In this document: one piece after another, positions 6,483 through 64,000 of the stretch
How the letters are laid out: the number at the start of each line of letters is the position of its first letter
How positions within the stretch are numbered: position 1 is the first letter of the stretch
Assembly (NCBI GenBank): GCA_044892525.1
Contig: CM097886.1
Coordinates: 126,480,001-126,544,000, forward strand
DNA: 64,000 nt
Direction of reading: 5' to 3'
Source of the DNA: Schmidtea polychroa
Taxonomy: Eukaryota
Notes under the pieces: model-generated
What the model was told of the DNA's origin: nothing
The model's database searches: none
The model's input: the letters and a program-made list of their open reading frames with translations, nothing else
Translations under genes and position numbers: made by a program

Positions 6483-7110
6483 TGAGGATACCTAAATAAC
6501 AAATTTATAAATAAATAAATGAAATTACTTGAGGGAAAATCGTCTTGACAAACTCGGAAAAGAAAACGGAAGTAAAAAGAAACAAGAAATGAGAAAGGAT
6601 ATAAGAACAAAAAAAGCGAACAAGGAATTAAAATAAAGGTCAGTACTAATTAATTAGTACAAAATGAAAAGGAATTTCAAATCGGGAAAAACAAAAATAA
6701 CAACAATATAATTATCTCGACAGTTTGTCAGAGATAACGGGAACGAAAAGAAAACAGGCCGGAGCGGCAAAAAGAGAAAACTAGAAAATATCTTGACAGC
6801 TGTCAAAGATAACTCTGTTGTAGGGATAAGTTGGAAAATTATTTTGGAGAAACAAATGGGAAATTAAATATAATTTGAAGTGCCACAAAGTGACAAGGTA
6901 TAAAAGGAGGAAGCACAGCAGAAGCAGACAGAAAAATTAAGAGAGAACAATTACGAGAACAGTTAAGAGAAGAAACATTTGAAGAAGAATATTTACGACA
7001 GAACCGTTAAAGGAGAATATTTGCGAGTAATTTGCAAGTAATGTCTGCATGAATGATTGATTATTTTTGATTGTCTGGGTCCTCTATAAATAGTATCACA
7101 ATTTCTTAAA
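6480..7110 (+). mobile_element. LTR fragment, TGTTGAGG family, truncating the hAT remnant
   Basis: Starts TGTTGAGGATACCTAAATAACAAATTTATAAATAAAT, nearly identical to 39464 onward; TATAAAA near 6900; 3' end unclear next to the N-gap. Confidence 0.7.
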
Positions 7111-7808
7111 TAAAGTTTTTGGAATTTCTCANNNNNNNNNNNNNNNNNNNNNNNNNNNNNNNNNNNNNNNNNNNNNNNNNNNNNNNNNNNNNNNNNNNNN
7201 NNNNNNNNNNNNNNNNNNNNNNNNNNNNNNNNNNNNNNNNNNNNNNNNNNNNNNNNNNNNNNNNNNNNNNNNNNNNNNNNNNNNNNNNNNNNNNNNNNNN
7301 NNNNNNNNNNNNTGGGGAAATATTGCTTTCCTCTCTTATTTTTATTATGACCAAATTAATTAATTATTGTAATGGACCTCAACGATTAGCCAGATTGAGA
7401 AAAAGTAAAGTAAATGCATTTAGTTAACATCATAATTACTTTATTTTAATCAACTGCTTAATTGTAATAATGAATCATTCGTAATAGTTTTGCTTTTATT
7501 ATAAAAGATAAATAGAAATAATATATTAAGAATAGAAAGCTTTATATGGATGGATAGTAGGATGGGGAGTCCCCTGAGAATAAATTGGAATGCCTTATTA
7601 TCTTTCACTGAGAAGGCGAATGCCATTTACATATTTATACCAGTTGTTGTTTGCAATGCGATTGAACTCCTTTTAATTTATTCCAGCTGGCAGTTAATCA
7701 CTTTATTAGGATCAATCTAAGTGGACTTGGCTTTCGATACTAACAGATTTTATCTGACTCTAGAGATAAAAACTTTCTGGCGTATAGATATGATTATATG
7801 GTTTAAAT

Positions 7809-48055: not shown

Positions 48056-49292
48056 GTTTCCTATAATATAACAAAAAAATTAATAATCTTACATTATAGA
48101 AACATACATACTTACTTTGATTTCACGTGGATGTTCTCATTTAGAGTGCAGTCAGATACATCTTATACTATAGAAATCTGAAAAGTGGAAGAAAAATTAA
48201 AAAACTGCACACAAACACAAGACATACTAAAAAACACATACAAACTTTTGATTCATCTAAATGCACCGCTGGGAAACGTTTCTATAATTATTCTATTTTA
48301 AACAATTTTTAGATAAAAAAAAGATCACTGAAAATTTTTAAAAATATATTTTCAATGAAATTTTCAAGAGCAGATGAATTTGGTTCAATGTCTTTTCAAT
48401 CCATATTTGCTTTCCTGAAAGAAGCTCCTCATATTGAGCTCAGAAAAAAAAATCACAAAAATTATTTTATTTTTATTATTCGGGGATTTTTCCCAAAATG
48501 TTTTAGAAAAATACATATTTTTGGTAATTCATTTATTTAATTATAATTAAAAACATATCTAACTCACATTTTTTCGAAAATATTCCAAAATACTTGTCAT
48601 AAAATATCAAAAATCCCTGAAAATTATTTAAAAATAATTTATAATTATAATGTTGACTAAAAGTAAAATTTAAGAACTTGAATAATGATCTCATATCTAT
48701 ATGGATCAAAATTGAAGACTTAAAATTTACTTAAAAGTAAAATCTTGCCTGAAAGCCATTTCTAAAATGGCTAAAATAAATTTCCAAAAAACATTCATTA
48801 TTGTAAGCAATTCAGTGAATTGTTTTACACACCAACCACAACTATAGAGAATGTATCTCAGTGGTGTTTGGTGTAAACAGGTAAAAATTGAAACTAAAAT
48901 TCTCGGTAGCTACAGAAAAGACCTTTGTTAAAGGGAGGTTTTCGTTATATTGTGGGATAAATACTGTTGGGCTGAGCCGAAAGATAGCTGGGAAATCAGG
49001 TTAAACTTAACTAAAGAAAAATAAAAAAATAAAATAAATAGATCGAGGAATAAAATAGAATAGAACATAAGAAAAGTAATAATTAGAAAATAAGAATTAA
49101 AACAAAAAACATAAAAATAAGAACAATTAAATAGGACAATAGAATGACGAAAAATAACGTAAAAGGTAGTAGATAATAAGGAAATTAAGGAAAATAAATA
49201 AAAACATAATTTTAATAAAGAAAATAAGAAGAAATAACCCAAAAACAAGGAAAATAAATTAAATGAATAAAATAAGGCGGTACTCAATTCTG

Positions 49293-49325
49293 ATTGGTCC
49301 GCATAAACAAAAAATACCTATATAA
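49293..49325 (+). promoter_or_regulatory. Candidate Pol II promoter in the LTR (inverted CCAAT plus TATA)
   Basis: ATTGG at 49293, TATATAA at 49319, followed by a splice donor GTAAGA at 49375. Confidence 0.5.
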
Positions 49326-51557
49326 GTAAGCAGCAAATTCACTATAATCAATGTTAAAATCAAACCAATTATAGGTAAGAATAGTATTAACTATATGAAA
49401 TAAATGTTAAAATCAAACCAATTATAGGTACTCGACAATCAGGAAAACCAAACCATACTCAGCCAACTATTAGGGACAGTTCTATAGACTACTCATTCAT
49501 ATAACCGATTGGATCAGTTTATATTTCGGCTCAGCCTTTGGAACTACAGAATTTTTCAAATAATAAAGTAAGGATGTATTGCTATTATGAATTTGTTTTG
49601 AAGGATTTAAATATTTCTATTATATTAACCTAACTTTTGAATAAAAACTTCTCCATTCGGTTTCGATCTTTTAACGATTTTATGGTTCATAAATTAATTT
49701 ACAGGTCAATGAATTATAAATATTTATGTTATGTTTTGTCATCAAACGTATTGATTATGCTAAAATTATTTGTTTTGAGAAACGTGGAGTTGAGGAGACC
49801 CACGCCATGGTATGAGGAGCCTTCGGGAGCTCAGCCGGCGGGTGTGGATCTCTTCAATCACGCAGCTGACGTGGGCCGGAATGTGGGGGCTTCCTCACGG
49901 GTCCGTCGCTGAGGGAAATAAAATGCTGCAAGCACGAGTTTAAAGTGTAGAGGAAAATATTCCAATATTGAAAAGTAGAGCAAATCTGAATTGAAAATGA
50001 CTGAGGTGGCTACAAACTCTTCCAAGTATGAGAATCTCATTTTCTTAGGTACTATACTTTGAAATTTTCGTCTAACATTATGAATTAGGCTAGATCGACT
50101 ATTCACTTCCATGATACTCTATCATCTTGCGATAAATCCCCTTTTCGTCAAAATTCATGTCAATTTTCATCTTAACTGATAGAACCCAAGAGCTAATACA
50201 TTCACTCTGATGTTATGCAGTAGTATAGGAAGTATATATGGAAGATCACTGAACGCTTTTATTTACTAAAAAGATATTTGGAGGAGTACGTTATTGTTTT
50301 ATCAAAAGCGCCTTAACTCTTTCTGAAATCCCCAATAGCCGTAATCTGAAGTCCGTTCAGTAAAAGACCCTCTGGCCTCATAACACAGTAAACATACAAG
50401 GAGAATTTACAAAAGTATTTAATTAAAAAGATAAAATTTCGTAAAAAATTATTTATTTTCATTAACAAACTATAATTCTGAGTTACCAGTAGTAGGAGCA
50501 TAATAATCATTTCGGGAAGTTACCCTTGATAGATGTCGCCAAGATGAGGAAGGGCTTGAGCGAGTTGATAAAATCTCCACCGGACAGGATATTCTGATGT
50601 AAAGCGAGAGAGGCGGTATAATAAAAAATTTTCCAAATTTTCGTGTTTGCTGAGAACTAAACAGTAGATTCATATCGGAGCTGAATGATTAAATTCCAAA
50701 AATCGATGTAATCCAAGTTCGGCAGCATAGATAAAATATGAACATGTACAGTGAGAAGGTATAGTCTGTCTGTAAGTAGGCAGTGAATGAGATTGAGCAA
50801 TCACCTGCAGGTAGAATCACATGTACAATAGCGAACAATTGCATATGGCTTAGTCGATGTGATACTCATGCTGCCGGTACGGTAGCAGTGAATTCACAAT
50901 TTAATCATCGATAATGAGAAAGCCGAATCCCATTGCACACACATGGTGAACACCAACTTTTCTGAGAGATCTGAACACTAAACCAGTTGACGAGGAGGCA
51001 TGCAACAGATGGTTTGCATCATACGTGTCATACAACTAGAATAGAAATTAGACTAGTCTAACTTATCAGCAGTGTGATTGATCAAACAGAGCAAAGTCCA
51101 TTTGACTGTAAAGTTTTTGTAATCGCACGCATTTACAATTAACTCAAATTAGAGTAGCATAATCACGAATAAACTCAAATCTTTTAATTAATTTATTATC
51201 CCGATGTACTGCACCTGTCTGAATTGTTTTGCTGATAGTAAAGTCGAATCTGGTCACGCTCATGTATTGACAAGTTTTCTTAATCCGCAATAAAATTATC
51301 ATGTTGGGCAAAAGGGGGGGGGGAGAATTAATTTGTTAACCCGTAAACCTATAATTACTTTACGGATGTAATATCGATCAACAGGAAGTTTCGCTAACAG
51401 TCATTCCGTTTTCTTCTTGTCGGTCATTTCAACCCATGAACGTAATGTAGGGAATTTATGAGCCTTAATAAATAATTACGCTACTCTGATGGATTAGTAG
51501 AGCTAGCCAATTTTCGTCTTATCTCTATTATTCTTTCTTCATTATAGCTATCAAAAG

Positions 51558-52301
51558 ATGTTGCCAAGCACGAAATCGCCCATCAAACCCTGCTTCTCCT
51601 GCTCGGATAAAAATACCGTAATCCGAGAATTACAGGCCCAGATCGGTCGATATAAAAAGAAGATCGACGATCTGGAAGGTACATGGTTTAGCCCAGTACA
51701 AATGAAGGAAGTTCAAAAGAAATTGTACCGCAGTGAGCATTGTCGCGATGCTTTGATAAGCGAAAGTAGAGCTCAGCGTAGCCTAATCAAAGAGCAGTCC
51801 GAAGCTCTACATAAAGTTTATGTTCAAGCCGCTACAACCCGAAGGATTGTTAGTATTCCGATTAAAGAAGCGGACAATGTCTTCCCCGTTCACCATGAAC
51901 CTTCATTTAGTTCGCCACCCTTGTCGAAAAGATCTTGTCAGGAATGTGTGGAGGCCGACCTCTCCCCCAGGCCATCGGACGTACCTACTACCGGCACTGG
52001 CAAGGTATTGCATTCAGCCACGACGTCCTCGGCAATCTTGTCTGCCAACCCCTCAAAACCTAAGCGCCGCCAATTGTCCAGAGCGGAGCGTAAGAAGCGC
52101 CAACGTGAACGAGCAATTGTCAAACAACGAGAACTATCTGTCAACCACCCAAGTGCTTCGAATGATCCACCCGTAACGATCGATCTGACCGTAGGAATCC
52201 CAGGGCGAATCATATCTGCCGCTGGTGTGGCTTGGGAGGAGAATGCCTCCGAGTTTTTTGATCTAGATGAGCTATTGGCGGATGCGGGGTGGGAGAAGTG
52301 A
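51558..52301 (+). CDS. LTR-encoded 247-aa protein: CxxC, coiled coil, CxxC, basic NLS-like stretch, acidic aromatic C-terminus
   Basis: Intact ORF; acceptor TTCATTATAG at 51547; AATAAA at 52432 and 52437; conserved with many synonymous changes in 4356-5092. Function unknown. Confidence 0.85.
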   Translation: MLPSTKSPIKPCFSCSDKNTVIRELQAQIGRYKKKIDDLEGTWFSPVQMKEVQKKLYRSEHCRDALISESRAQRSLIKEQSEALHKVYVQAATTRRIVSIPIKEADNVFPVHHEPSFSSPPLSKRSCQECVEADLSPRPSDVPTTGTGKVLHSATTSSAILSANPSKPKRRQLSRAERKKRQRERAIVKQRELSVNHPSASNDPPVTIDLTVGIPGRIISAAGVAWEENASEFFDLDELLADAGWEK

Positions 52302-52880
52302 TGGCCGCAACACAATGCAACCGTGCAGGGTGCGAATGGACAAATAAACTATCTTGACTCTTTTTCTTCTTAATCTATTCTCCACCAAGTGTACTTGTTA
52401 TGTAGTGTATAATTCTCTAATGTATCATGATAATAAAATAAAGAAATTTCTGGTTAAATTTTAGTTGTTGTTTAAATCTAACTAGCTGTGGTAAAGATTC
52501 AGAGTAGTGTTCGCAAAGCGAGAGTAAAGTTTGAGTTCGAGAGGCAGTGGTCAATTTTGTGCCGAATAATGGGTCAGGGTAGAGGGAGAATCTGATGAGG
52601 TAAACAGACGTAAGTCCTTCCATCGGCCGTCAGAAAAGGGAAGTCGAGGCCTCAGTAAGGAGTAGTCCTAAGGTAGGGGCTCACCTGCTTACTGGAGTCT
52701 CGCCGACATAGCACATTTCCAACGTGAAGCAATTCGCGGGTGCTATGTTGGAGGGCAAGTTGTGCGGGGTCCTGCTCCGGGTTGACACGGGCGTATGTAG
52801 CGTAATGATATGGGCACGCACCCCCTAGACAAGGACGTAGATTGAGCAGAGTCAACCAAGCACTACCCCAGCATAATTTT

Positions 52881-52898
52881 TGGGGGCTCAGCCGGGAA
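52881..52898 (+). promoter_or_regulatory. Primer-binding site, tRNA-Pro-like
   Basis: TGGGGGCTCAGCCGGGAA vs canonical Pro PBS TGGGGGCTCGTCCGGGAT (15/18), 7 nt after the LTR-terminal CA. Confidence 0.75.
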
Positions 52899-53157
52899 TG
52901 TAATATGGAATTTCTGTCGAATAAGGTGAATTCACCGGGAGGATCGATGTCAATTAGTGGGCGAAAGCAAATTGACTAATGCCTATCGAATCCTATTAGA
53001 AATTACGATTAGAAAATAATAGAATTAAAGATATAAATAAAGTAAATAATCGGGAAATAGGATAAAAATAAAATAAATTATAACGAACTAAAAGAAAATG
53101 TTTGATGAAATAACCATTAATTAGCTGTATATTATTTTTTTTCTTTTCTCAATAGAC

Positions 53158-53643
53158 ATGACGGAATTCGCAGAACAGATGCAACAATTAATTAATTTCA
53201 TTAATATAGAAAACGACCCTATTAAAACACTCATACAAAAAGGAAAGCGAATCAACAGCATTTTACTCCAAGCAATCGGACATGCACCAGGCGTACCTAA
53301 TCACGTGTTATTGGCCGCAGGTTTAAGCCACCCAGATGAAAAGATAAATCACGAAACAGTATATCAATGGTACCTAAAACGACTAAAAAACCCGGCCCTA
53401 AATCTAGAATACGAGCGAATAAAAGATCAACTACATACAATATCAGAGGCAATCGAACAAAAGATACAAGAGAAACTCACCAAATTGCGAACCTGTCTGT
53501 CTTGCAATCTTCGCCCTATACGCATACTATTCTTACCTTGTGGACACCTCAGTCATTGTGAAGAGTGCGTGAAAGATCTGAAACGATGTGCAATATGTAA
53601 AAATGGGATAAAAGAAACCCATATGGTTTATTACGGTGATTAA
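53158..53643 (+). CDS. 161-aa protein with a C-terminal IAP-type C3HC4 RING finger and no BIR domain
   Basis: CLSC-X11-PCGHLSHCEEC-X6-CAIC at the extreme C-terminus; polypyrimidine tract and AG at 53154-55; AATAAA at 53759 then a T/GT-rich tract. Confidence 0.9.
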   Translation: MTEFAEQMQQLINFINIENDPIKTLIQKGKRINSILLQAIGHAPGVPNHVLLAAGLSHPDEKINHETVYQWYLKRLKNPALNLEYERIKDQLHTISEAIEQKIQEKLTKLRTCLSCNLRPIRILFLPCGHLSHCEECVKDLKRCAICKNGIKETHMVYYGD

Positions 53644-54200
53644 AACGACTAACCAGATGCAGTGATGTATATGCGCACTAAATTGATAAAAGACCTTTGA
53701 ATACGAATATATGTACTTTTAAGTGTGAAATAACTTTAATGTTTAATTTTAGTCTCAGAATAAATAAAAATTTTTTTTGTTGTTATGAATTAGATATTTT
53801 ATCTCTTTTAATTACATCTTTGGTTATGAGATCGAATGGAGAAGAATAAAACTAACGTGGAATTAGTCCCAATATAGGCTGCAGGGGTACAAACCGAGCC
53901 ACCTTCGGGCGGTACGTTTTATTGCAAGAACCCGTTGGGAGGGGATAACTGATCAACCCAAGTAAGAAGCGTAGGGCGGGGTACCATCGCATATGATGAG
54001 AAGTTTCTGCGGCATGACTGATCACCATACCAATGTGGAAACGGATCATCGCGATCGTCGTGCGTTTCGAGCAAGGGGGGAAAGGGGAAACACTCTCAAG
54101 CGGTAAAGATTAAGTCGACAAATTAAAAGTAGACAGAGAAAATGGTAATCTAGGGTAAAAGAAGAAAAGAGAAGTAGAAGCATGCAGAGCGGGGAATATT

Positions 54201-54570
54201 AAGATCGAGTTGTTGAATAGTCCAACCGATCAGAAGGAAGAAGATTGAGCTGTTGAATAGTGCCAGCCAGTCGTAAGATCGAGTTGTTGAATAGTCCAAC
54301 CGATCAGAAGGAAGAAGATTGAGCTGTTGAATAGTGCCAGCCAGTCGTAAGATCGAGTTGTTGAATAGTCCAACCGATCAGAAGGAAGAAGATTGAGCTG
54401 TTGAATAGTGCCAGCCAGTCGTAAGATCGAGTTGTTGAATAGTCCAACCGATCAGAAGGAAGAAGATTGAGCTGTTGAATAGTGCCAGCCAGTCGTAAGA
54501 TCGAGTTGTTGAATAGTCCAACCGATCAGAAGGAAGAAGATTGAGCTGTTGAATAGTGCCAGCCAGTCGT
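54201..54570 (+). repeat. Five identical 74-bp units in the retroelement leader; each unit is a 40+34-bp dimer
   Basis: AAGATCGAGTTGTTGAATAGTCCAACCGATCAGAAGGAAG + AAGATTGAGCTGTTGAATAGTGCCAGCCAGTCGT at 54201, 54275, 54349, 54423 and 54497. Confidence 0.97.
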
Positions 54571-55590
54571 AAAGGCCTAGAAAAATGAGAAATAGCAGTC
54601 AAGCTACAATGAGATAATATTTAAATGAATAGAGAAAGGGAATATTAAAGCTAGCTAGAAACAAATTGAATATAATTACGAAAATTTGAGTTTAGAGAGG
54701 AGATAAACGAGCTCGGGGAAAAGATAATAAAATTATAATGAAAAAGGAAGGAGAAGAAGAAAATGAATTAAAGAAATAATGAGAAAATAAAGAATAGGTG
54801 AAATGGAGATAATGAGTAGAAGAAGAAAGTAACTAGCTAGTTAAAGGGATCCCAGTGAAGTAGAGAAACTCTACGGAATTTTTTTTGGGTAAACCGGGAA
54901 AATGTATTTTTATCGGTTCCAGAGTAGAACCGAGTGGGATAATAGTAAATATGAAAAGTAAAACAGCGACAACAGCGCAAAGGAATAAGAAAACGAAGGG
55001 GGGTAATAAGCAGAGACCGACAACGACCTATTTTTACTATAATTGATAACGAATAGATAACTATTACGACCTTATAGATAATTGTTACTACCCCATATAG
55101 ATAATTTAAAATCGACGGAAAATACGGGCTGATGGGAAATTATAACCCGCAGAAAGGATTTCACAAAAGATAGGGGAAGCAAACAGAAACCTAAAAGGTG
55201 TCTGTTTTTGAATGTTGTAGAAAGAATGATGAAGTCGTGTAAGCAAATGCAACACGAGATCATTTTTTCATTTTAGATATCAAGCCAATCCAGTCAACCA
55301 AGACAATCCAGAACCTGCACAAAAGGAATTCGAAGAAATCGACAATCAACCAAGGATAAATCCATTCAGAACCCGCACCGAGAGACACAGCAACCGGAAG
55401 ACTCCAGAACGGAAGAAGATACAGATAGCGACATCTCCAACTTCGAACGAATCATCGATATATTCAACCTCATAGTATTAGCAGCCATCTGCCAAGGATT
55501 AGTAAATCTCCTCAGGATCTCAGTAGCAGATTCATACAGAATATTTATCGAAGGAAACACAATCAGAACCGAACTCGTCCAATTCAATAG

Positions 55591-56840
55591 CCGCTAATTA
55601 CCAAGAAACGCAAGAAAGGAATCACGGATAAACCCAATCTTAGATCTTCAAGTAAGCCAGGAGACGTATTATTTTCAGGAGACGAATTACAACAACTCAA
55701 AAGAGGACGATCTATTAAACATCAAAGAGGAATATCACAAGGAGCAAGAAGAACCAATCAAGTACCCATATTTGACCAAGAAAATCTCGGATATACCCCT
55801 AGTCGATCTCGAAGTAGAGAAAGTCTGTCCGATATCACTTATAGTTTAGCAACGTCAACCGAGGAATTATCAGCCCAAAGTTTAGTCACATCGTTAGACA
55901 ATTTAAAAGAAACAGACGAACCTAGAACACCAATCATGACGAATGTCGTATAAACCGATGAGTATAAAGAGAAGTTCAGAGGAGAACCGTTCAATGGAAA
56001 TGCAAACAAGTTAGCAACGTTCATAACTAATTTTGAAGTTTATATCACTGTGTGTGGATGGACACCCGAAGCAATTAGTAAAAGGATGCCGTTGTTTCTG
56101 TGCGATAGCGCATTAGAGGTATATTTAGAAGCTAAAGAGAGAGATACGAAATTAGAGAAGTGGGAAGATATCAAAACATTCCTGAAGAAAACTTTCGGAG
56201 CTAGCAAACCAATAAATCAAGCACTCGGCGAACTAGCAAATAGGAAACAAATGGCAAATGAATCTATTACGTTATATGCCAGCGAATTGCGGAGATTGGC
56301 AAAGAAAGCAATGAATGGGAAATTACCAGAAGAAAATTTGATCGGTTATTTCATAGAGGGATTACGCCGAGAAGAAGTAAGAGCCTCAGTAGGTTGTCAA
56401 ATGTGCAAAACATTAGAGGAAGCCATAGATTGGGCTACAAGATGCGAGCTCCACCTTCCAGCTCAAATGAATATTATGCAAGAGGAGGGAAGGATAGCGA
56501 CAGCAATAGCGAAAGCGGATAACGGAGATAACAACAATCAAGAACCGAAAATGAATCAATTTATACCAGGAGCGCACCAAATTTTCAAACCACCACAAGG
56601 ACGATCAAATGGGAATAATGGTAATCGTAACAACCCGAATAATGAGAACAATTTCAATAATCGACGAAATATGAACGATAACAAGCAGTGCCGAACATGC
56701 GGTAAACCAGGACACTGGGACAGAGATTGCTATAGAAATTCAAATTGTAATCGTTTAGACGGCGTGGACATACCGAAAATGTATGCCAATTGAGAGGTTG
56801 TTTTAACTGTGGTCAGCCAGGTCACATCTCCAGAGATTGC
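55591..56840 (+). CDS. gag: Gag (capsid plus 3 CCHC zinc knuckles); in-frame TAA at 55951 and a 1-bp deletion at ~56755
   Basis: EPFNGNANKLATFITNFEVY capsid start; knuckles CRTCGKPGHWDRDC (56689), CNR[C]RRRGHTENVC (56746, restored by +G) and CFNCGQPGHISRDC (56799). Confidence 0.9.
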
Positions 56841-59800
56841 CGAGAAAGGGGCCAACAACAACGACCACCACAGCGAAATAATAATTATATAGCGAATCCG
56901 CAACGACAAAGTAACCCTAACGAAGGAAAACAAATGAACGTTATGCAGGAAATTTCGCAGATGAAACAGATGATGCAACAAATGATGAGACCAAGACAAG
57001 AATCAGCACCCCAACAAACCCAGAATATACGTATGATGAGGAGTACCGAAAATCTCAACAATTATGAAGTGCATCAACATGTACAAGAATGGCAAAGGCT
57101 ACAGGCCGAGGAAGAGAGGATAAAACAAGAACGCAACCAACAACGACAAGAACAACCATTGCGAATAAATATGATGAAGTTAGTAAAAGACATGAAGAGC
57201 CAGTATTGCTACAATTACGGGAAAAACCCAAGGGTAATACCCATGACTGAACCAGAAAAGGTAAAAGAAACAACAACGGAAATGAAAACAGAGAATTCAA
57301 CCACGATTTTAAAAGGAAACCAGAGAATTCAGAAAATATTCTGGAAAAAGATAAAAGATAAAATCGAAAAAGAACATAATAAAGCGAAAACCGCGACAGA
57401 AGATGAAAATAACAAGAGCAAGGAACAAACCAGTCAACTAAACCACCAAATGCTACAAGAATTAGAATCAGAAGAAACAACAATATTCGAAAGAAAGAAA
57501 CTAAAGAGAGTACCAAGGATGAGAAACTTGCAAATCAATATGATGAAAAGGATAAAAGATGTAGCATCGTCAGACGAAGAAGAAGACTATGTAAGTAGTT
57601 TGGGTGGAGAAATACTACAGCTAAATGAAATAAGCGAACCTCCAAAAGGGGAAATCAAAGAGGAAGAAAGCGAAAGCGAGATAACCAGTGGAAGTGAAGA
57701 CGAAGATGTCGAAATAAAGTTGAGAAAAGCAGGGGAGGAAGCGATAAAACAGGTAGCCGAAATACTCCCAGTAGTAGTGAGGAACCAAGAGTTCATCGAC
57801 GTAATTCCATTCAGGCGATTCGTGCAAAAAGTGATGAAATTGGAAAGAAACGAGAAAGATCTAATACCAAACGAGGAAAAATCAATTATAAAAAAGTATA
57901 TGGAAAAAATGAAGCAGGCCGATACCACGCGGTATGTAATAAAAATTGGAACGAGTAGAGGACTTGAAAGAATGTGGATAAAAAATACAGTCACCGACGA
58001 ACTTTTCGATTGGATACGAGAACATTTGGGAAGTTCGAGAAAGAAAGAATATCTGTATCAATACCAAGGTGAACAGATCAAACCAGATATGCACTTAGTA
58101 GATGCACTGATATGGCCAGGAGAAACGCAAATACTGAAGTTGCATAAAGAAAAACAACCAGCCAACCTTTACGATTGGGCTAAAGATGCCAAGGCAGAAT
58201 ATGATTTTAATATCAAATTGAAATTAGAACAAATAAAACAATGTACTCTGAGACGAAACCTGGATAAGCTGATCAAACAAATTCAAGAACAAGTAGAAGA
58301 CAACTGGGATTTACTCATCACCAGACGAGCCCCAGCCATGTACGAACTAATGAGCCGGTTGCGAGATACAGAAATGCTCCGAATGAGTGATTGGAGAACC
58401 ATAAATTTGATCCACAAATATGGAAGGTTAAAAGAAACCCAGCCACAGAGGTTGGAAATAACCATATGGTTACCGAACGAAGAGAAACGACGAATAAAAA
58501 TGAGCAATCAGAGTACAGTAGATGACTTGGTATCAAAAATAAACCAAGAGATAACGGAAAAGGTACGTAGCGAAAGTAGTGATGGTATGGTGGATGATGT
58601 AGTCATGATGTACGATAAAATAATATTACGAGCGGAGGACGACACCTCGTTAAGCGAAATGGGTATGTGGGACAATCATCAGATAATCAGGATAGTACCA
58701 ATGGATGAATTCCGAACAAGAGATGTAACCTATCAAAAAGAAATACGAGACCGGATGAAAACGTTATATCAAAAATCTACAGAAATAATTGAAATCCACC
58801 AACAATGGTTAAAAGAAAAAGAGCTACAAGGAAAAATCACGAAACTAAGTACCAGATCCTGCAGACGGACTCCATGGGAAAGAGTGTGGAATACAGAAAA
58901 TAAGGAATGGGAAATCAGGAAAGGGATCTTCGTAGAAACAGACATTGGTGAGACAGAAAGTGAATCGGAGGAAGAAGAAGAGGAACCTCCAGAATATGAA
59001 GAGGAAGCAAGGGAACAGACATCAGATGACGAAGGCGAGACGGATGTCACATCAGAAAGCGAAAATGAAGCGAGACATATTCATGCAATGAGGAAAAAGG
59101 AACGTGAATATGCTGATATGGACGGCGAGGAAGCAATAGAAGCAAGAGAGCGGGAAGAGAAAGAAAGATATAAACAATTAGGCGATATCTTAGCAATGGG
59201 AGCGAAAAATCAAAAACGCCAAGTAGTAGCGTTGGCTAACATCATCTTAAAGACATCAGAGAACATCCACAATCTGAGAGGAATGGCAAAGGCAATAGAG
59301 GAATACCGGCAATATAATGAATGGTATCCAGAACAGCTAGAACAAATTATTCGAAAATGGAGAAATCAGGAATGGGCACAAGACACCCAGGAGAGGTATC
59401 ACATCCGAATCAAGTATCCGGACAAGAGCATCGAGGAACTAGAGGTACATCCAACAACAAAAATTAGAGAATTAAAAAAGAAATTAGCATATGAAACTCC
59501 ATTCCATCTGCAACTATTCGGAAAATCACTAGACGATAATGCAGACGTCGGGATAACACCCATGAGATTGGAAGAGACAAATGTATTAACAATGGCAGAA
59601 ACGTTGGGGAAACCGTTAAAAAGGAAAAGTAAAATTACTAAACCAACAAAAGGCAGTTTGAGTACTCCAAGTCCGAACAAAGCACCAAGTAAATCTAATG
59701 AAACTGAAGAAGTTGAAGAGATAATCCTGGAAGATAGTGACGATGAACCAGGAGAAAGATCACCGCTATTAGTGAGATGGCCGACAGGAGCCGAAATGTG

Positions 59801-62800
59801 GACTAATAACCAGCCATCAACGAGTTATCAACAACCAACGAAACTGAACATCAAAGAAATCATCGACAATACTACGGAAACCGAAACGGATGAACAATTC
59901 CAGAAGCAAAGAGAACCAACGAAAGTAACACCAGAAGGTCAAACCGACAAAATAATAGACGAATGGAATGAGTGGCTAAGAAATAACGATAGCTCATTAC
60001 CCAGAACGGATAACGAAAGAAATCCGAATTACGAAAATACCAGAGAAGCCGGAACGATGATGGAAAAACGGGCAAAAGGAAGACCTAAGAAACAAGGAGA
60101 AAAGTCTGAGTTCAAAACCAAAGAACAATTAAAGCAAGAACAAGGGCAAGTTCGATTAGAAAAATTGGATAAAATAGTATGGGATCTAAAGGAAGCCCAA
60201 CCAACGATCGAAAGAGGAGAAAAATGGATACGTGAATTGTTAAAAGATATGTTAATAATAACAAACCCACAACTTAGACGTTTGTGGCAACGGAAAGTAG
60301 CCAGTACGGAAGCTAGACAATTATGGCACACCATTTCGGGGATAATCCCAAAGTTAATCAAAGAGAAAACGAAAACCACCAAAACGGATTGGGACGAAAC
60401 GAAGAAAGTGATTGAACAGCTCACGACAAATGCAAATGATGACGAACATCATCTAGTGGTAATCACGTATTTGATGTATAATTTGATGGGACTAGCTGCG
60501 AGGAAAATACCAAATAAACAGTTTGCAAATCATGTGGAAATGACCGTTTCAATCATAGAGAATACTATTGAACCACATATTATTCGTGCAGGAGGATGGA
60601 AAAGACTGATACAAGCGCCACGAAAAAATGAGCAAGAAAGGTCGATGCAAGTTAGATTGAAAAAACTGTTAAATGAACTAGAATGGGAACTACCGATGAA
60701 AGATCCCGCAAGCAGAAAAGCATCAATAAATTCGTTAATGATGACTATGATGATATGGATGTTGTGCACAAGTGGAGCAACAGGTTTTACCATCTACGAT
60801 TGTGATAATATGATAATGAGAGATAAATACTCATTGAGAGACATAGAAGAATGCAGACAAGCCTCACCCAACAAATTGGACATCGTGAGAACAAAAGTTA
60901 CTTACCATGTATATCAAGAATCAGATTTCATCAGAACGCAAGCAAGGGAATGCGTAGTATCAAAAAAGGTACTCGCATATTACTGTGGACAATATTCGTA
61001 TTCGACTCTTATACTACCCGGTCTGGATAAAGAAATCGTATCAATACAACGAGAGGACTGTAAAGAGCTATTTAGAACCGGAGCGCTAAAAATGCATAAC
61101 GGAGTGACGATTCACGGACAAACTGGAATGATTAAAACCGAAAGTGTTTACGTATCCGGAAAAGTAAAATCATCAGATGGGTCATGTAACGGAGGTACGT
61201 ATACGATCCGAGGCGAGGTAATATCGGGAGTGGTAGTGATCGAGTCTTATACGGTCGAATTAAAAGAATACGAAGCGCAATTTGACGCAAATAATTATCA
61301 AATGAAGACCAACCCAGCGTGTAAAGCTACAGAAAACGTATGCAGGACAGGAGTATCAACTATAATCTATGATGCTAATACCCAAAAATGCCGACTCCAA
61401 CTGTTAAAAAGTGCTTTGTTCAATGAAGTAAAAGGAGAAATTTACGAGAACGAGAACGACGAGGATGGAAACGACAGAGTGAGAATGCGAAATGGAAAAC
61501 CAATGCCACCATCTCCCAGAGAAAAGAGACTTTCAACGCAGAAGACACCAACAGCATTAATCACAGACGATCCAGATCTAGGTATGAGATTTATCAAAGA
61601 GAAAGAAACCACCAAATGTGACAGTATAGTATATAAAACCAATTACGCAGGTATCTACATGTCGAGACAAATAATCGATAGAGCAGTGGGAAAGATAGCA
61701 ACGGAGGACGTAAAACTATACTTATATGCAAATAATAAAATGGATTTTCTATTTCATCGCGGACAAACGACCTTACAAAAAGTATATTACGATCTGATAC
61801 AAAACGATTGTTCATTGAATAAAGAAATATTGAAAACAAAGCTAGCTATTGCGATAACGCACCCCGATAACACGATGCCATCACTCCCACTACCAGACGG
61901 ACATTTTGGTAGAATGGTAGGAGAAGTGATGTACACATACCAGTGTACCAAGACGTATGCACGAATGCCAGAAAAATCCATACTACCCGAAAAGAGATGT
62001 GCAAATGAATTAGAAATTCGTTATAAAGGACAAAATCGATTCGTCCAACCAGTCACTAGAATCATGAATCCAGTGGGTTTCTACCCAAATCTCTTTAACT
62101 GTTCTAATGCATACGGACCTTTGTATGAAAGACCCGATGGGAAATGGATGATGTTACCGGGAAAAACCATATCCGAGGAACCCAAGAAATTTGGATTAAT
62201 AGAACTCGCCACAGAGCTGGATTTCAAACCTATAGACGTGTCAAACGGTGGTATGTATTCCCCAGAAGATCTAGAAACAGCACGACTTAACGTACTCTTC
62301 CCAGCCAGACGAGAATCCATTTTGTCTAATATGGTAACAATAACTGGGGGCACAAACTATCAATCAGGCCCGAATTACGAGCTGCTATTATCGCCAGACC
62401 ATTTTCAACAAGCTACGTCAAACATGATGAAAGCCATGTGGGGAAGATTCTTAGTTTTTGGACAAATGATGGCCGGGATATTAGGGATCATACTCATAAT
62501 TCAGATAGTTAGAGTAATACTAACACAAATGTTAGCTTGTTTCGATATATACAAGCGGGAAAAGAAAGTTAATTGGAAAATGATAGTAGGTTTCTTACCA
62601 TTTTTAGCTAAAACCATGGTATTACATGGTCACTCAAAAGACATTCATCGGATAAAGCGATTGATTAAAATATTAACAAAGATTAAAGGAACCGACGAGG
62701 AAGTAGGCAGACGATTCCGGAAAGTAATGTACGACGAAACAACAAGACGACAATTGAAAAAGAATAAGCCAAAATTCTTGGACCGATTTAGAAGCCAATC

Positions 62801-64000
62801 ATCTAACAGCGATAGTGACGACGATGATGACGGGAACGATAAATGTCTTTATCCAAACAGAAACCCAAACGAAAAACCAATGGAAACGGCACCATATTGG
62901 GAAAAGGAAAAGACAAACACCTGGATCGCCAATGGAAGCTATATACCACCGGATATCGTGGGACCACAAGCAGCTTTGACCATGACACAAAATATGTATC
63001 CGCAATTACCGAGTCAACCCGGTATGCATTATATGCCGACACGACGTACCAAAAGTGTAGATCAAGCAGATGACGTAAGAACAATCGCAGCGATGAGTCT
63101 ACCTGGAGGTCCAGCAGTGACAGTCATGATCCAAATCAATGGTAAAGAAACCAATGCTATGATAGACACAGGAGCTAATGTATCAGCGATAGCGATTAAT
63201 CAAATCCCCAGTAAACACTGGAAAGATATCGAATCAACAACAATTCACATCATAGCATGTAGTAAAGAAATAGTGGACGTGGTCGGAAGATGGTGGACTA
63301 CTTTGAGATACCAGGACAACGAAATTGAAACGTATTTGGCAGTAATACCAAAACTTAGCGTACCATGCATAATCGGAACGGATTTGATGCCAGAATTGTT
63401 AAAAGAAGTCGTAATTGACTTAACCACCATGTGTCTAAAAGACAAAACCGGTAGAATATGCAAAATGAATGCAGTAATCAGATGTCCAGAAAAAATAATA
63501 GTACCAGCAAAATCGCAGATGATTTGTCAGATAAAAGTGGATACGGGTATGGAAGGAGAAGTTATCTTTGAACCAAGCAAGTCATTCGAAAAGCGACGAG
63601 AGTTACCACTCGCAAGGGAAATAATAACAATAAACCAAGAAGGAGTGATACCGCTCAACATCACGAATTTCGAAGAAGAAGACAAAATCATTTATGAGAA
63701 CGAAAAATTGGGAAGATTGACCCCAATGATGGACATAGAATTACCGAGAGTGACCAACGAGATGATCAAAGATGATGAATTATGGACAATAGATAGTATG
63801 TTGTTGACGAATGATGAAAAGAAAAAATTGCACCGTTTGTTGGTGGAATATAAAGATATATTCGCCATCTCAGATTTAGATTTGGGTACATGCGATGTTA
63901 CCCTACATGCAATACCCCTCATAGATGAAACTCCAATTGCATTAAGACCATACAAGCTAGCAGAAATGCAAAAAGAAATAGCCGAAGCAGAAGTACAAAA
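56757..64000 (+). CDS. Stop-free polyprotein frame (~2,414 codons, 3'-open): NC, Ubl x3, Bcl-2-like, signal, glycoprotein, TM, PR, dUTPase-like spacer, RT start
   Basis: Translated by hand in the frame with codon starts divisible by 3 without meeting a stop. The ORF track lists no terminated ORF in this frame, as expected for an ORF running off the end. Confidence 0.92.
57930..58149 (+). other. Ubiquitin/SUMO-like domain A in the polyprotein
   Basis: YVIKI..ERMWI..TDELFDWIREHLG..YLYQYQGEQIKPDMHLVDALIWPGETQILKL follows the beta-grasp pattern. Confidence 0.55.
58449..58700 (+). other. Ubiquitin-like domain B in the polyprotein
   Basis: LEITIWLPNEEKRRIKMSNQSTVDDLVSKINQEI...VMMYDKIILRAEDDTSLSEMGMWDNHQIIRIV parallels ubiquitin along its length. 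Confidence 0.7.
59394..59600 (+). other. Ubiquitin-like domain C in the polyprotein
   Basis: HIRIKYPDKSIEELEVHPTTKIRELKKKL..LQLFGKSLDD vs ubiquitin LEVEPSDTIENVKAKI..LIFAGKQLED. Confidence 0.72.
60153..60615 (+). other. Bcl-2-like helical domain in the polyprotein
   Basis: Central hydrophobic helix HLVVITYLMYNLMGLAA, then SIIENTIEPHIIRAGGWKRLI resembling BH2 (Bcl-xL: YLNDHLEPWIQENGGWDTFV). Confidence 0.65.
60720..62640 (+). CDS. env: Envelope glycoprotein segment, chuvirus-G/gB-type (class III-like): internal signal peptide, ~550-aa ectodomain with 14 Cys, furin site, TM
   Basis: Signal SLMMTMMIWMLCTSGATG|FTIYDC; YYCGQYS; DGSCNGG; REKR at 61518; GRMVGEVMYTYQC; CANELEI..FVQPVTRIM; NCSNAYGPLY; GGMYSPEDL; TM FLVFGQMMAGILGIILIIQIVRVIL. 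Confidence 0.85.
63114..64000 (+). CDS. pol: Pol start: retropepsin, dUTPase-like spacer, N-terminus of RT
   Basis: IQINGKETNAMIDTGANVS (DTG at 63165), CIIGTDLM; then KDIFAISDLDLG..HAIPLIDETPIALRPYKL, typical of the Ty3/gypsy pre-RT region. Confidence 0.93.

Follow-up and report, generated by a model that had tools for sequence, protein, structure and literature searches.

A probable envelope gene, with a predicted gB-like product, in frame between Gag and protease of a giant Burro-type element in Schmidtea polychroa

Can a retroelement carry its envelope gene in the middle of its polyprotein, upstream of the protease? This question is raised by a stretch of 64,000 nt of the planarian Schmidtea polychroa (GenBank assembly GCA_044892525.1, contig CM097886.1, positions 126,480,001 to 126,544,000; hereafter the window), in which a giant Ty3/gypsy element of 29,798 bp (~29.8 kb from long terminal repeat (LTR) to LTR) begins and runs on past the window end. 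An initial annotation, made from the letters alone, had reported a signal peptide, a Cys-rich ectodomain and a transmembrane (TM) segment in one stop-free frame with the protease. Our analysis points to an envelope (env) gene that sits, in frame, between the Gag and protease parts of a young giant Ty3/gypsy element of the Burro type, with a predicted gB-like class III fusion product that is probably threaded into the endoplasmic reticulum (ER) from the polyprotein middle; we hold this reading to be likely. Features are given in window coordinates and lie on the plus strand.

The long polyprotein frame (56751..63998 and onward) is stop-free from 56751 to the window end and comprises 4,345 codons in total in the present copy. 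Frame, hydropathy and motif scans confirmed the annotated arrangement, and signal-like helix, Env ectodomain, TM helix, protease, reverse transcriptase (RT), RNase H and integrase all share this one frame. The internal signal-like helix (60726..60785) is weakly hydrophobic between 60726 and 60773 (Kyte-Doolittle 13-residue maximum 1.62), and the residues A-T-G precede an F at 60786, before which cleavage is predicted; signal cleavage and topology were assessed by hydropathy and motif. The TM helix (62439..62552; Kyte-Doolittle 19-residue maximum 2.53) is the only segment of the frame to exceed 1.5 within the window. It is followed by a predicted cytosolic tail and linker (62553..63122), stop-free up to the aspartic protease (63123..63398; PF00077, E 1.7e-09; D-T-G at 63165). 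The distances noted initially hold as well, with ~1,295 codons from the last Gag knuckle to the signal and ~190 codons between the end of the TM helix and the point where the Pfam match to the protease begins. Past the window, Pfam profiles identified RT (E 3e-36), then RNase H, integrase and Ank_2 ankyrin repeats (E 6e-20), and the frame there also includes a second signal-ectodomain-TM unit.

The ectodomain (60786..62438) contains 14 conserved cysteines between 60801 and 62100. It matches the Pfam family Monjiviricetes_fusion (PF24664) with E 1.4e-72, and since the score of 245 bits compares with a cut-off of 27, the match is not due to chance. The predicted Env structure, a confident model, resembles herpesvirus gB and displays a class III fold with a central helix. 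The product is thus predicted to be a class III envelope glycoprotein of the chuvirus-G/herpes-gB type, the fusogen type that the initial annotation had anticipated.

Next, we considered whether the layout belongs to this locus alone. In the present copy the Gag capsid and first CCHC knuckle (55954..56793; PF03732, E 1.3e-11) lie in a separate frame, because the knuckle region is frame-shifted (56751-56793), and the env frame is shared only with the last CCHC zinc knuckle (56799..56840; PF00098, E 1.6e-07). This shift is what could be said in favor of the in-frame layout being an accident or an assembly artefact at the present locus, i.e. a viral gene fragment that was captured and serves no function. 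Searches for other copies covered a 781-Mb genome (four large contigs) and yielded samples biased toward young copies. At the DNA level, the TM-tail-protease junction as query returned 40 scored places of 98-100% identity among 581 candidates, so the junction is not unique to the locus. Among 39 other copies, one stop-free frame extends from TM to protease in all 39, from signal to protease in 37 and from capsid to protease in 34; the TM helix is identical in 39 of 39 and the signal in 38 of 39, the remaining one being offset by an indel. Two intact knuckles are found in the present copy, while all 39 others carry three in one frame; the frame break, absent from these 39, is accordingly particular to the present copy or its assembly. 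The in-frame position of env, with Gag before it and the protease after it, as first annotated, hence stands for most copies, although in the present one the capsid has been shifted away. In a protein search, a 4,732-codon frame was counted by eye at 59 of 150 scored places (2,083 candidates).

The sequence variation among the copies tells the same way. For variants common to at least two of the 37 indel-free copies (L024 and L029 were dropped), we observed 4 non-synonymous and 64 synonymous changes in env, a ratio of non-synonymous to synonymous polymorphism (pN/pS) of 0.02. Elsewhere the ratio is 0.03 in the capsid-knuckles part and the protease, 0.05 in the tail, the Bcl-2-like part and the second linker, 0.07 in the ubiquitin-like (Ubl) region and 0.20 in the first linker. 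Env is under strong purifying selection, more so than any other segment from Gag to protease.

The layout also extends beyond this family. Two further env-bearing families of the same genome (L053 and L054) show the Bcl-2-like part, env and protease in frame, and in one of the two the frame already includes Gag; the frame of the L053 family has 3,334 codons. A protein library contained 909 relatives at E 0.001 or better. Among the long ones, a hydrophobic segment stands ahead of the ectodomain in all 13 examined, and 10 of 12 carry a protease motif farther along the same protein; in P0004, P0016 and P0017 matches to Gag or a knuckle, then env, then protease lie within one protein. In a FastTree phylogeny six embedded Env rows fall within one supported 9-row group, apart from stand-alone homologues. 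Since the layout recurs in dozens of copies, in several families and in metagenomic relatives, and since env is the most constrained region, the accident or artefact is refuted, and we assign it a negligible probability. None of the outcomes that the initial annotation had named as refuting its reading, namely lack of a fusogen-fold match, a stop or frameshift dividing env from the protease in most copies, or a junction confined to this locus, was observed.

Some relatives have features of their own. P0001-P0004 and P0016 carry two to four tandem protease-like D-[TS]-G motifs 3' of env, in some cases with several Pfam protease stretches. P0007 is an env-protease-RT-integrase polyprotein under the NCBI label Flavobacteriaceae MAG (metagenome-assembled genome) and probably represents animal DNA that was binned with a bacterium. 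In P0146 the PF24664 fusion protein is preceded by three Ig domains.

How could such a polyprotein work? The steps that we propose draw on general membrane-protein biology. One chain of ~4,700 residues would be translated, of which the Gag, Ubl and Bcl-2-like parts would remain cytosolic. The helix at 60726 would start translocation and host signal peptidase would release the ectodomain N-terminus; the TM at 62439 would halt transfer, so that protease, RT, RNase H and integrase would be back in the cytosol on the Env tail, and the protease of the element would cut Pol loose from it. Env trimers could then cover the particles that bud there and mediate their fusion with other cells, resulting in cell-to-cell spread. 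We infer the in-and-out passage from the combination of a signal-like helix with one TM. The single open reading frame (ORF) implies that Gag, Env and Pol would be synthesized in equal amounts, unless a spliced or truncated product exists.

Besides the frame shift described above, several points weigh against this reading. There is a single N-glycosylation sequon in the ectodomain, at 62097. Ten in-frame ATGs occur in 60474-60759, five of them inside the signal, and, judged by what retroviruses do, making as much Pol as Gag would be a waste. The last two points would suit a different arrangement, in which the single ORF exists as read, yet splicing or alternative initiation provides separate messages for the functional products, with Env made from its own message or from an ATG just before the signal and Gag and Pol made from others; the in-and-out crossing would then be rare and the ratio not 1:1:1. 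However, the Gag-Env and Env-protease linkers are open and constrained in copies and distant relatives, which a separate message would not need, and a crude scan of 59500-60760 revealed no pyrimidine-rich acceptor-like site. For these reasons we regard such separate messages as unlikely.

The single sequon would also suit another view of what Env is kept for. Env could serve a non-infectious role, either tethering Pol and the assembly of particles to a membrane or joining neighboring cells by fusion, rather than the entry of released particles. Its position links Pol to the Env tail, as an anchor would, and purifying selection shows that Env is needed but does not tell what for. On the other hand, the entire gB-like fold and all 14 cysteines have been retained, which goes beyond what an anchor requires, and we judge a purely non-infectious role to be improbable. 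Taken together, threading of a fusogenic Env from the middle of the polyprotein remains the reading that we prefer.

The region in front of the signal allows a bolder proposal. A Bcl-2-like domain (60378..60599) ends in a GGW motif (60591); its PF00452 match (E 0.038) is below the Pfam cut-off, and with a profile built from this and two related domains, Bcl-xL/Bcl-2 structure chains rank first (best E 0.01). Cellular Bcl-2 proteins terminate in a tail anchor comparable to the Env signal, which in the present element follows the GGW at ~45 residues. Once cleaved, the signal may therefore serve as the anchor of this domain. Four of 13 library relatives, as well as both other families of this genome, have a GGW at a distance of 47-82 residues from the beginning of the ectodomain, on its upstream side. 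Against such an anchor, the signal occurs in 9 of the 13 relatives with no GGW among the 95 residues ahead of it and is thus independent of the motif. At the other end of the polyprotein, after the ankyrin repeats, L011:6772-7788 encodes a signal-like helix (6772-6846), a cysteine-containing ectodomain and a TM (7567-7650), for which a Pfam scan gave no match; with this second signal-like helix and TM, four membrane passes would follow. We tentatively suggest, as a possibility with less than even prospects, that the polyprotein is a four-pass alphavirus-like precursor, in which the cleaved Env signal becomes a Bcl-2-like tail anchor and tethers uncleaved Gag to the ER, the Env tail brings Pol to the same membrane, and the C-terminal unit is another surface protein. 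If true, a single translation event would set up an enveloped, cell-death-blocking retrovirus-like particle moving between planarian cells. Open-access literature searches returned no treatment of topology or of a Bcl-2 anchor beyond PMC6431247, PMC13524379 and PMC8532177, and it is possible that the signal as Bcl-2 anchor and the C-terminal unit go slightly beyond published descriptions.

Ubl-like stretches lie upstream of the Bcl-2-like domain. A weak Ubl domain (59391..59600; PF00240, E 0.0028) is below the Pfam cut-off, a stretch at 58440-58710 matches Ubl families at E 0.1-0.2 only, and for a stretch at 57900-58200 that looks Ubl-like by eye Pfam gave no Ubl match.

The element itself is well delimited. 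The 5' LTR (48965..52873) and the 3' LTR (L012:2854-6762, past the window end) are each 3,909 bp long with TG...CA ends, and an identical 4-bp target-site duplication flanks both element ends. Because the two LTRs differ at 3 sites only and the duplication is present, we conclude that the insertion is very recent. The placement in Ty3/gypsy (Metaviridae) uses LTR structure and Pfam profiles: paired TG...CA LTRs, target-site duplication, the order protease-RT-RNase H-integrase and a retrotransposon Gag with CCHC knuckles are all present. Both LTRs carry a 264-codon ORF (51507-52301 in the 5' LTR) with no meaningful Pfam match. A few bases 3' of the 5' LTR, the stretch 52881-52897 resembles a primer-binding site, presumably for tRNA-Pro, and the 5' untranslated region contains a 74-bp unit repeated in tandem about five times (54200-54572, by self-match). 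An accessory ORF preceding gag (53125..53643) has a C-terminal RING finger (PF13920, E 7.4e-11), which we take to be IAP-like. Accessory ORFs 3' of the polyprotein (L011:8346-9782 and L012:2-2628) comprise a RING-MATH (TRAF-like) ORF, two coiled-coil-like ORFs and one ORF of 219 codons in which hydrophobic stretches lie at the beginning and in the middle. Elsewhere in the window, the start of a 415-codon frame (1072-2319) resembles by eye part of a G-protein-coupled receptor.

Finally, we compared the element with known systems. The initial annotation had stated that no layout with env upstream of the protease was known, which is contradicted by PMC6431247 and PMC13524379. An in-frame env between gag and pol was described for planarian Burro elements (Arkhipova and Yushenova 2019, PMC6431247), and Burro/GYPSM1 are giant planarian gypsy elements attributed there to Jurka 2007 and Grohme et al. 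2018. Like them, our element is ~30 kb long with long LTRs and one giant polyprotein (4,732 codons versus 4,873 aa), and it shares a three-CCHC Gag (in the 39 other copies), Ubl, BCL2-like (a weak match alone), env, protease-RT-RNase H-integrase and ankyrin repeats (PMC6431247). The family thus has the LTRs, the ~30 kb and the single ORF near 5,000 aa of Burro, the present copy being frame-shifted in Gag; the element may be Burro-2, -3 or -4 or belong to a sister family. In contrast to Burro1/GYPSM1, where MATH is within the polyprotein (PMC6431247), the MATH domain (Pfam, E 2.5e-26) sits here in the separate downstream RING-MATH ORF. For the BIR domain of Burro and its dUTPase-like domain between protease and RT (PMC6431247, which used HHpred), no Pfam match was found in the ORFs scanned. 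The same paper compared Burro env to gypsy Env, noting mononegavirus matches, while the present data place Env with gB-type class III proteins. BURRO1 RNA was reported to increase upon smedwi-2 RNA interference (PMC8532177).

GAG-ENV-POL elements have been described in flatworms, nematodes and bryozoans; they do not form one clade, and their Env ectodomains are flanked by a signal peptide and a TM or by two TMs (PMC13524379). The words 'in-frame', 'polyprotein' and 'Bcl' are absent from the main text of that paper. Its HSV/gB-type errantiviruses Smed_errantivirus_1-6 share order and env type with our element, but its Env equals none of the six env rows listed, the nearest being Smed_errantivirus_5 (32/58 residues, ~55%, by eye), whereas the L053 family matches the Smed_errantivirus_2 row by eye (PMC13524379). 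In nematode non-canonical endogenous retroviruses, a metavirus env is likewise located before pol (Sacco et al. 2022, as cited in PMC13524379). With chuvirus/Monjiviricetes fusion glycoproteins and herpesvirus gB the Env shares the PF24664 profile and the predicted class III fold with central helix; those proteins are stand-alone, of ~650 aa or larger and with N-terminal signals, while Env here is embedded in a polyprotein. The layout is real, functional-looking and unusual among retroelements, and it is already known; since it is in print, the present locus adds a member and not a kind. Its added value lies in a very young, high-copy family in which, from Gag to protease, no segment is as constrained as Env, and in a confident gB-like model. 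For these reasons the family is a good natural subject for studying the proposed mid-polyprotein Env threading, the presumed Gag:Env:Pol equimolarity and possible cell-to-cell movement, in an animal built on stem cells.
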